Of a stretch of DNA of 64,000 nucleotides, positions 53,181-53,983 are shown piece by piece. This stretch comes from a virus, in IMG/VR virus record IMGVR_UViG_3300031521_000043, positions 9,490-73,489 of that record. One strand, 5' to 3'. A model generated the notes under the pieces. That model saw nothing but the letters and a program-made list of their open reading frames with translations. It did not search any database and was not told the origin of the DNA. Position 1 is the stretch's first letter. Every line of letters begins with the position of its first letter. The translations under genes were made by a program, and so were the position numbers.

Positions 53181-53452
53181 GAAAAGAATAATATGCTATT
53201 ACGCCAAAAGAACGGTTTCCCCAATTTTTATTATTGGTGACGACATACCAATGTTATTTCACTGGTTTTTACTGTCACAAAGTATTGTTGTCCTCCTGTC
53301 CTTCAACCGAATACGTCGGCCTTCATATTTGTTATCAACCTTCACAATATTACAGTGGAAACTACTTTACGCCGATTCCACAAATAGACTAGGAGACTTG
53401 TTTCTACTTATTATAGGATGGCTGCCTCTAAGCCCACCTTTTATTACTTTTA
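53181..53452 (-). ncRNA. RNA containing a split mimic of the 23S rRNA L11-binding domain (H43/H44)
   Basis: GGTGGGCTTAGAGGCAGCCATC ... GCGTAATAGC, enclosed by an outer stem. Confidence 0.75.
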
Positions 53453-53983
53453 CTAAATTGTTCCCACATACATACCCATGATAATCGCGGCACACGAACC
53501 GACGTTTAATGAACGAACTGTACCACGAGCAGGAATAGTAACTATTCTTTCTGAATTGTCAAGCATGTATTCTGATAATCCGAGTTGTTCTTCGCCGACC
53601 ATAAAGATTGGTGGTAACTTTAAATTACTAAAAGGATTATCATATATTGATACCGTCTTAGATTCAAACTTAGGAATATTATTTTCTACGGAAACTAAAG
53701 AATACTTTCCATTTATAAATTCCATAAAAGATTCTTCGGTTCTAATATAGACAGTCGGAATATAATGATGTGTTCCGACTGTACTTCGACGGTCATACTG
53801 TTTTGAACCACCGACATAACAAAATTCACTAAATCCAAAAAAGTTGGCAGAACGTATACAATTTCCTAAATTAAAATCACCTGTCACGTGCGCCATACCA
53901 AATGCTGCCTTATGAGAATGGTCAGAATAACTTTCCTTGATTTCTTCAACCGACAGTGACTTTAAGTAATCGTGAACATTCAT
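53453..53983 (-). CDS. SpoU/TrmH-family RNA 2'-O-methyltransferase
   Basis: 'NLGNCIRSANFFG', 'VGEEQLGLS', 'IPARGTVRSLNVG' SPOUT motifs. Confidence 0.92.
   Translation of the reverse strand: MNVHDYLKSLSVEEIKESYSDHSHKAAFGMAHVTGDFNLGNCIRSANFFGFSEFCYVGGSKQYDRRSTVGTHHYIPTVYIRTEESFMEFINGKYSLVSVENNIPKFESKTVSIYDNPFSNLKLPPIFMVGEEQLGLSEYMLDNSERIVTIPARGTVRSLNVGSCAAIIMGMYVGTI

Follow-up and report, generated by a model that had tools for sequence, protein, structure and literature searches.

The L10 leader and the leader of the L1-controlled L11 operon are autoregulatory mRNA leaders that mimic the ribosomal RNA (rRNA) sites of ribosomal proteins. Bacteriophage arrays of transfer RNA (tRNA) genes are usually seen as codon-supply or counter-defence kits. 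The species 1 and 2 RNAs of phage T4 are small stable RNAs in a phage tRNA cluster, and their function is unknown; we know of no likeness between them and rRNA. We examined a 64,000 nucleotide (nt) stretch of viral DNA, here called the window, which covers positions 9,490 to 73,489 of IMG/VR record IMGVR_UViG_3300031521_000043. The minus strand of the window carries at 53179–53453, inside a tRNA array, an element that copies the end of helix 42 (H42), H43 and H44 of 23S rRNA and adds an extra arm. These helices form the GTPase-associated centre, the site of protein uL11 and of thiostrepton. The element almost certainly belongs to a real family of structured RNAs that mimic this centre. Position numbers of 23S rRNA follow what we take to be the E. 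coli convention, anchored on A1067 and A1095 of an earlier reading of the window, the original prediction.

The element shares with the 23S centre its helices, its loops and a covarying 1082/1086 pair. It differs in being free-standing, outside any rRNA gene, and in its location in tRNA arrays. It also differs in an arm at 1090/1091 (56–361 nt across the family, among the matches listed from the first of two samples described below), an A at 1101, and relaxed A1067 and A1095. The principle is that of the ribosomal protein leaders, an extra-ribosomal RNA copying a protein-binding site of rRNA. However, those leaders work in cis, at the 5′ end of ribosomal protein operons in cells, whereas the phage element has no adjacent ribosomal protein gene and no Rfam match, and from its sequence looks like a trans-acting stable RNA. 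The T4 species 1 and 2 RNAs resemble it by description as non-tRNA RNAs in a phage tRNA cluster that are presumably matured by the tRNA machinery.

The original prediction had read two segments of the minus strand, GGTGGGCTTAGAGGCAGCCATCC at 53438–53416 and GCGTAATAGC at 53204–53195, as the two parts of an L11/thiostrepton domain that is closed by a stem and split by a large structured insert. This reading has gained strong comparative support from covariation and from the covariance model R1. The closing stem lies where it was proposed, with AAAAG/AATAA (53451–53441) pairing with TTATT/CTTTT (53191–53182). Its H42-like 5′ strand (53441–53451, minus strand) reads AAAAG, an unpaired U and AAUAA, and was assigned by family covariation. 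The 3′ strand (53182–53191, minus strand) reads UUAUU, CUUUU, and its pairing is found in the fold prediction as well as in the family counts. Inside the stem is the H43-like hairpin at 53415–53439 (minus strand), equivalent to 1057–1081, with the A1067 equivalent at 53429; it was recognized by its sequence and its identity to genuine 23S rRNA. The junction AUAAUAAGU follows at 53406–53414 (minus strand), equivalent to 1082–1090, where A occupies 1082 and U occupies 1086, placed by family covariation. Alignment to genuine 23S rRNA then places a variable arm of 201 nt at 53205–53405 (minus strand), between the equivalents of 1090 and 1091. Family covariation defines the base stem of the arm, AGAA at 53405–53402 with UUCU at 53212–53209, which is followed by the linker UUUG at 53208–53205; the fold of the arm's interior is a prediction. 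The H44-like hairpin GCGUAAUAGC at 53195–53204 (minus strand) is equivalent to 1091–1100 and has the A1095 equivalent at 53200, as judged by sequence and alignment. The window element has all three helices, closing stem, H43 and H44, around one junction. The H43 loop, expected as UUAGAAGCA with A1067, is UUAGAGGCA in the window, and the H44 loop with A1095 is GUAAUA, as expected. The 73-kb record, whose completeness is estimated at 21%, has one locus of this kind, which the model search split into pieces.

Likeness to genuine rRNA was measured against the 23S rRNA of MZ092003.1, which matches the Rfam large subunit (LSU) rRNA model with 2658 bits. The window element is identical to it at 27/36 positions in the 5′ half (1055–1090) and at 11/14 in the 3′ half (1091–1104). 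In the same alignment the 201-nt insert falls exactly between 1090 and 1091. By our own reading of this alignment, 4/9 mismatches of the 5′ half lie in the pairs 1058/1080 and 1082/1086, in each of which both members are altered together. Model R1, built from phage elements alone, gives the genuine 23S centre 59.6 bits, so it is the family as a whole that resembles rRNA. The original prediction had looked to an alignment with the Rfam LSU rRNA model; that alignment failed, with no match in 53050–53600 at E≤10, and the Rfam LSU family (RF02541) has no match anywhere in the 73-kb record. The 14-nt sarcin-ricin motif is absent from the window at ≤2 mismatches. Among 268 loci just 5 have this motif, and all 5 carry genuine 23S rRNA. 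In 3/3 pairs of a genome and its host rRNA the mimic and the centre of the host rRNA are not identical. Because it is unlike the host centre in all three readable genomes, the element is not a fresh capture.

Two samples of the family were drawn from IMG/VR by exact search. An 18-mer of the H43 half gave sample 1, with at least 119 loci. An 18-mer of the H44 half gave sample 2, with at least 119 stretches, of which 85 are new loci. Together they hold at least 204 viral loci, and about 197 of the matches listed have both halves. In 113/119 of the sample 1 matches listed, the H44 half follows the H43 half at a distance of up to 500 nt, with ≤3 substitutions, and 84/85 of the new loci listed from sample 2 match model R1. 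Family counts given below cover 95 unique sequences (94 in counts by position), all from the sample 1 matches listed, and position counts over 88 are from the matches listed in the H44-anchored sample.

Covariation was examined in each sample. A MAFFT alignment of 38 short phage members, from which the window was excluded, served to build model R1, which matches the window at 53179–53453 on the minus strand over its full length with 73.6 bits (E 1.1e-23), well beyond chance. In the 38-member alignment 89.9% of cells are paired, compared with 63.4% after shuffling. The covariation score is 0.652 versus 0.165, a value reached by 0/500 shuffles, and it collapses when the partners are slid. An independent sample of 81 distinct rows, which was aligned by the model and so leans towards it, is 90.9% paired versus 64.6% shuffled. 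Two-sided changes occur in 17/20 pairs of this set, and none of the five measures is attained by shuffling (0/500). Covariation beyond all 500 shuffles is seen in both samples for the closing stem, H43, the base stem of the insert and the 1082/1086 pair. The search for phage homologs and covariation suggested in the original prediction was thereby answered by many viral loci whose helices covary, with 0/500 shuffles matching them.

Counts at single pairs lead to the same helices. At every one of 7 positions of the closing stem, 75–89/94 members are paired, and each of the four Watson-Crick types occurs. The outer H43 pair 1058–1080 is GC in 35, UA in 35, AU in 17 and CG in 5 of 94 members. The first three pairs of the insert base stem are formed in 88, 89 and 83 of 94, again with all pair types. 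Positions 1082 and 1086 covary as UA (40), CG (27) and AU (5 of 94), and the window has the AU variant. In the rRNA domain itself these two positions make a tertiary contact. The junction contacts of the domain in crystal structures are the 1082–1086 pair, U1060–A1088 and triples between the loop and H44. The sequence signature of the family fits such contacts, with covariation at 1082/1086, U1060 in 94/94 and A1088 in 84/94 members.

The most conserved bases were compared with the functional bases of the centre. U1066, G1071 and C1072 are present in 88/88 members of the H44-anchored sample and A1073 in 87/88. In the H43-anchored sample G1093 and A1098 are each present in 94/94 and U1094 in 93/94, and the loop positions beside A1095 vary (1096 is A in 70 and G in 23; 1097 is U in 44, C in 35 and A in 14, of 94). 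We assume from crystal structures that the invariant bases build the fold and that A1067 and A1095 are the exposed contacts of factors and thiostrepton. Selection for the fold, which would mean for a protein such as uL11 that reads it, would suit this pattern better than selection for factor contact.

Some features set the family apart from rRNA. All members have the arm between U1090 and G1091, in the 5′ strand of H44, with a U-rich linker (UUUG) before G1091. An A is found at 1101 in 92/94 members, where both genuine 23S rRNAs compared have U; by its identity this A could pair with U1090. The interior of the arm has no family-wide k-mer motif above shuffles. The arm of the window has one 29-nt match of 83% identity (E 0.002) to the arm of another member, L074, and in comparison with the remaining arms it gave only chance-level matches of 10–13 nt.

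The family is mostly viral. Complete cultured phages with one unannotated copy each are Pseudomonas phage pf16, Aeromonas phage 4_4572, Cronobacter phage GAP32 and Xanthomonas phage XacN1. The element occupies the gap between tRNA-Asn and tRNA-Pro in pf16, at positions 29410–29610 of that record, and precedes tRNA-Met in 4_4572. In XacN1 (L210, 1831–2537) it lies about 20 nt after a coding sequence annotated as 2′-5′ RNA ligase. Blast matches to the element were found in Serratia phage BF, Erwinia pEa_SNUABM phages, Pectobacterium phage CBB, Yersinia phage fHe-Yen9-04, Vibrio phage 2.275.O and several Pseudomonas phages. With the window region itself as query, blastn against the phage database gave tRNA-Glu matches only. 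Among 185,579 prokaryote species, each represented by one genome, there were 44 matching stretches, 29 of them strong and full length; many were on contigs of metagenome-assembled genomes (MAGs), and they came from many phyla.

The neighbours of the element are tRNA genes. In the window ARAGORN found 38 tRNA genes on the minus strand at 45.9–60.3 kb, and the element fills the roughly 275 nt between an open reading frame (ORF) for a SpoU-family protein and tRNA-Glu(CUC). The latter, at 53100–53173 on the same strand, lies a few bases downstream of the element (Rfam tRNA, 53.9 bits). Across the family a tRNA was found within 100 nt of 49/95 unique elements and within 2 kb of 70/95, and 361/361 tRNAs within 2 kb are on the strand of the element. 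A tRNA on the same strand is within 20 nt of the stem end in 41/95. No neighbouring protein is conserved, the largest cluster being present in 6/94 loci, and an L11 domain was found in 0/40 element-bearing viral records. Since no phage-encoded partner is conserved nearby and none of the 40 records has an L11 domain, the partner is presumably encoded by the host.

Searches for a described counterpart were negative. No family of Rfam 15 matches the element, and the scan of the whole window at gathering thresholds returned tRNAs only. A permissive Rfam scan of 53050–53600 gave nothing relevant, including no ribosomal protein leader, and at the gathering threshold no family was found at the element in 12 other loci. 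The literature searched, which covered the main text of openly accessible papers, contained no prior description of such a phage RNA. The accessible portions of PMC10690425 and bioRxiv 10.64898/2026.09.22.753630 held nothing relevant to such an RNA, and those of PMC5852040 and PMC7824862 made no mention of 23S, rRNA or L11. On these Rfam and literature negatives the family is rated a new class of phage RNA, apparently undescribed.

The explanation that we favour is a phage RNA family acting in trans as a copy of the uL11 site. The element would be transcribed together with the neighbouring tRNAs. It would be released by tRNA-processing enzymes, with RNase P cutting on its 3′ side and tRNA 3′-end processing on its 5′ side. 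Once freed, it would accumulate as a stable RNA in the tertiary fold of rRNA and serve as a free-standing binding site for uL11. The original prediction had named uL11, stalk proteins, GTPases or RelA as putative partners. The likeliest partner would be host uL11. Exchangeable uL11 might be sequestered, or the uL11-RNA surface might be presented off the ribosome, and uL11-dependent steps in infection, including RelA activation and factor recruitment, would be altered. The parts of this proposal differ in strength. The element probably works by binding a protein reader of the GTPase centre. Whether this protein would be uL11 or another we consider evenly balanced on the sequences, and the explanation as a whole stands at about an even chance. 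Put more broadly, we lean towards the view that phages of many bacterial phyla make a trans-acting decoy, processed along with tRNAs, which would draw uL11, or any host or competitor factor that reads the site, off ribosomes and so reprogram translation control or the stringent response, or blunt an attack on the ribosome.

Several points weigh against this proposal. The closing stem has just about 8 pairs and its sequence is unconserved, and the element probably lacks the H42 site of uL10. For the window element the rRNA-like fold, when enforced, has −50.8 kcal/mol, versus −63.6 kcal/mol for the unconstrained minimum, in which the H43 strand pairs elsewhere. The folding z-score of the region is only −1.96. 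The two bases that contact factors are relaxed, as position 1067 is A in just 73/88 members (H44-anchored) and position 1095 in 84/94 (H43-anchored). Because the seeds were exact 18-mers, conservation inside each anchor arises by construction and divergent members are under-sampled. The fragment of the closest relative lacks the element and gave an empty model search, although it is only 6% complete. The RNA itself is unobserved, because 24/24 runs containing the stretch are on record as DNA. Finally, uL11 is abundant and mostly ribosome-bound, and by our reasoning a sponge would need a high copy number.

A related explanation is that the element is a decoy or shield against attackers of the GTPase centre, so that ribosomes are spared from a host or competitor toxin that would modify or cleave H43/H44 or from thiopeptide antibiotics. 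A parallel is the role proposed for phage tRNAs, which would offset defences that target tRNA, and the element is located in tRNA arrays. The fold is faithfully kept while no phage partner is encoded nearby, and the XacN1 copy lies directly behind the annotated 2′-5′ RNA ligase gene. The toxin Tre23 ADP-ribosylates H44 of 23S rRNA around bases 1095–1098, exactly this site (PMC8661411). However, Tre23 is an interbacterial toxin there, and the literature, as far as its accessible text goes, yielded no anti-phage system directed at the GTPase centre. The target bases 1095–1097 vary among members, and by our reasoning a decoy would face tens of thousands of competing ribosomes. A shield of this kind appears unlikely. 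It is less likely still that the element, alone or with uL11, holds RelA or a translational GTPase (EF-G, IF2, RF3, HflX or a similar one) off the ribosome while uL11 is not titrated. Capture of a factor would agree with the conservation of the whole three-helix domain beyond the H43 stem and with two contact loops that are conserved far above neutral expectation (A1067 in 73/88, A1095 in 84/94). Yet the most invariant bases are G1071, C1072 and U1066 (88/88), which build the fold, rather than the exposed adenines, and the other half of the factor site, the sarcin-ricin loop, is absent from the window.

The original prediction had also tied the element to the adjacent SpoU enzyme, and by analogy with Tsr acting on A1067 the element could be its substrate, guide or regulator. 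SpoU-family enzymes that methylate A1067 exist, and the SpoU stop codon adjoins the element. The SpoU-family (SPOUT) ORF, at 53453–53983 on the minus strand, encodes 176 amino acids, of which residues 31–169 match PF00588 (E 2.8e-20). It shares with Tsr/Nhr the SPOUT catalytic domain. Tsr/Nhr-type A1067 methyltransferases presumably carry an added N-terminal RNA-recognition domain, whereas the window protein is a bare SPOUT core to which no such domain is added. No specific NCBIfam family model reaches its cut-off; the best, RlmB, scores 48.5 bits against a cut-off of 160, and RlmB, TrmL and TrmH are all far below theirs. The best PDB match is AviRb (E 9e-5). The tie did not survive comparison with other genomes. 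The closest relative keeps a SpoU protein of 81% identity in the same tRNA-Glu(CUC) context, with a spacer of about 108 nt and no element. With phmmer 0/93 other element loci had a SpoU homologue, and PF00588 occurs in 2/40 whole element-bearing records and in 1/22 of those at least 90% complete. Position 1067, the base that such an enzyme would modify, varies in the family. A role in the SpoU enzyme's action is accordingly very improbable, and the gene, unlinked to the element elsewhere, is read as part of the tRNA array or toolkit and not of the mimic RNA. It is equally improbable that the element is captured host rRNA left behind with no function, that it arose as an assembly chimera, or that it is a cis spacer aiding only tRNA processing. 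Phage records can hold host rRNA, as shown by the almost complete 23S gene of phage Pd_22F. However, about 197 loci have non-rRNA features in common (the 1090/1091 insert, the UUUG linker and A1101), compensatory changes occur in four helices, and complete cultured phage genomes have a single copy each. In addition, 3/3 mimics are unlike host rRNA, and neighbours other than tRNAs are unconserved.

The finding gives tRNA arrays a cargo of another kind, which faithfully copies a functional centre of rRNA. If the proposed decoy is true, no virus was previously known to have one made from an rRNA domain, and the at least about 200 members would form a new class of phage non-coding RNA. Binding to uL11 or to some other reader of the centre would be a new viral route to act on translation or on the stringent response, and would account for unannotated gaps that are conserved in well-known jumbo phages such as GAP32, CBB, Serratia BF, XacN1 and pf16. 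Structural and antibiotic studies would also gain a compact scaffold of the uL11/thiostrepton site that is natural and accommodates an extra arm.

Some loci depart from the common form. In a 42-kb viral contig (L015, about 3700–3800) the halves are 11 nt apart, as in rRNA, with a closing stem of their own from the flanks. This compact free-standing variant lacks the 14-nt 3′ module and appears from its sequence to be the mimic in a form that has no insert. A 4.4-kb IMG/VR contig (L058, 1–90) has an insert-free GTPase centre at its start that continues into 23S-like sequence. It is the only match among those listed from sample 1 in which rRNA-like adjacent halves continue in this way, and Rfam gave no LSU rRNA for it at the gathering threshold or at E≤0.001. 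The record of Paenibacillus phage Pd_22F (L216, MZ092003.1), source of the reference used above, holds a near-complete bacterial 23S gene (2658 bits, model positions 1–2657), which points to host DNA inside a phage record. More than one copy was found at three loci: L056 (5126–5706) has two copies on either side of a tRNA-Pro, L206 (1115–2366) has two strong matches of 70.9 and 67.9 bits, and L232 (3990–5391), an 8-kb MAG contig, has three matches.

Other observations concern the surroundings of the elements. An L7/L12 C-terminal domain matched at E≤0.001 in 7/40 records (G007–G046), a count that covers element-bearing records only; 5 are above the Pfam cut-off and 2/7 are classed as proviruses. 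L105 has at 2334–2589 a group I intron (Rfam, 72 bits), about 2.6 kb upstream of its element. In the window a second model match at 44722–44884 on the minus strand (11.6 bits, E 0.029) was rejected as chance; it runs across an ORF end and across a stem plus U-run that resembles a terminator. A sigma-70-like site, TTGACA, 16 nt and TACTAT, was found by consensus scan alone at 53535–53562 (minus strand), inside the 3′ end of the SpoU gene and about 85 nt upstream of the element. The region has 17 such consensus sites versus 9.9 expected, which is no evidence of function. The DNA runs that contain the stretch are labelled as peat metagenomes. Within the tRNA array an ORF of 143 amino acids lies between tRNA genes at 51322–51753 (minus strand), and its C-terminal Cys/His motif resembles an HNH endonuclease; in Pfam it has just a weak zinc-ribbon match below the cut-off. 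Also within the array, ARAGORN places at 48838–48933 (minus strand) a tRNA-like gene whose anticodon has two bases, labelled tRNA-???.

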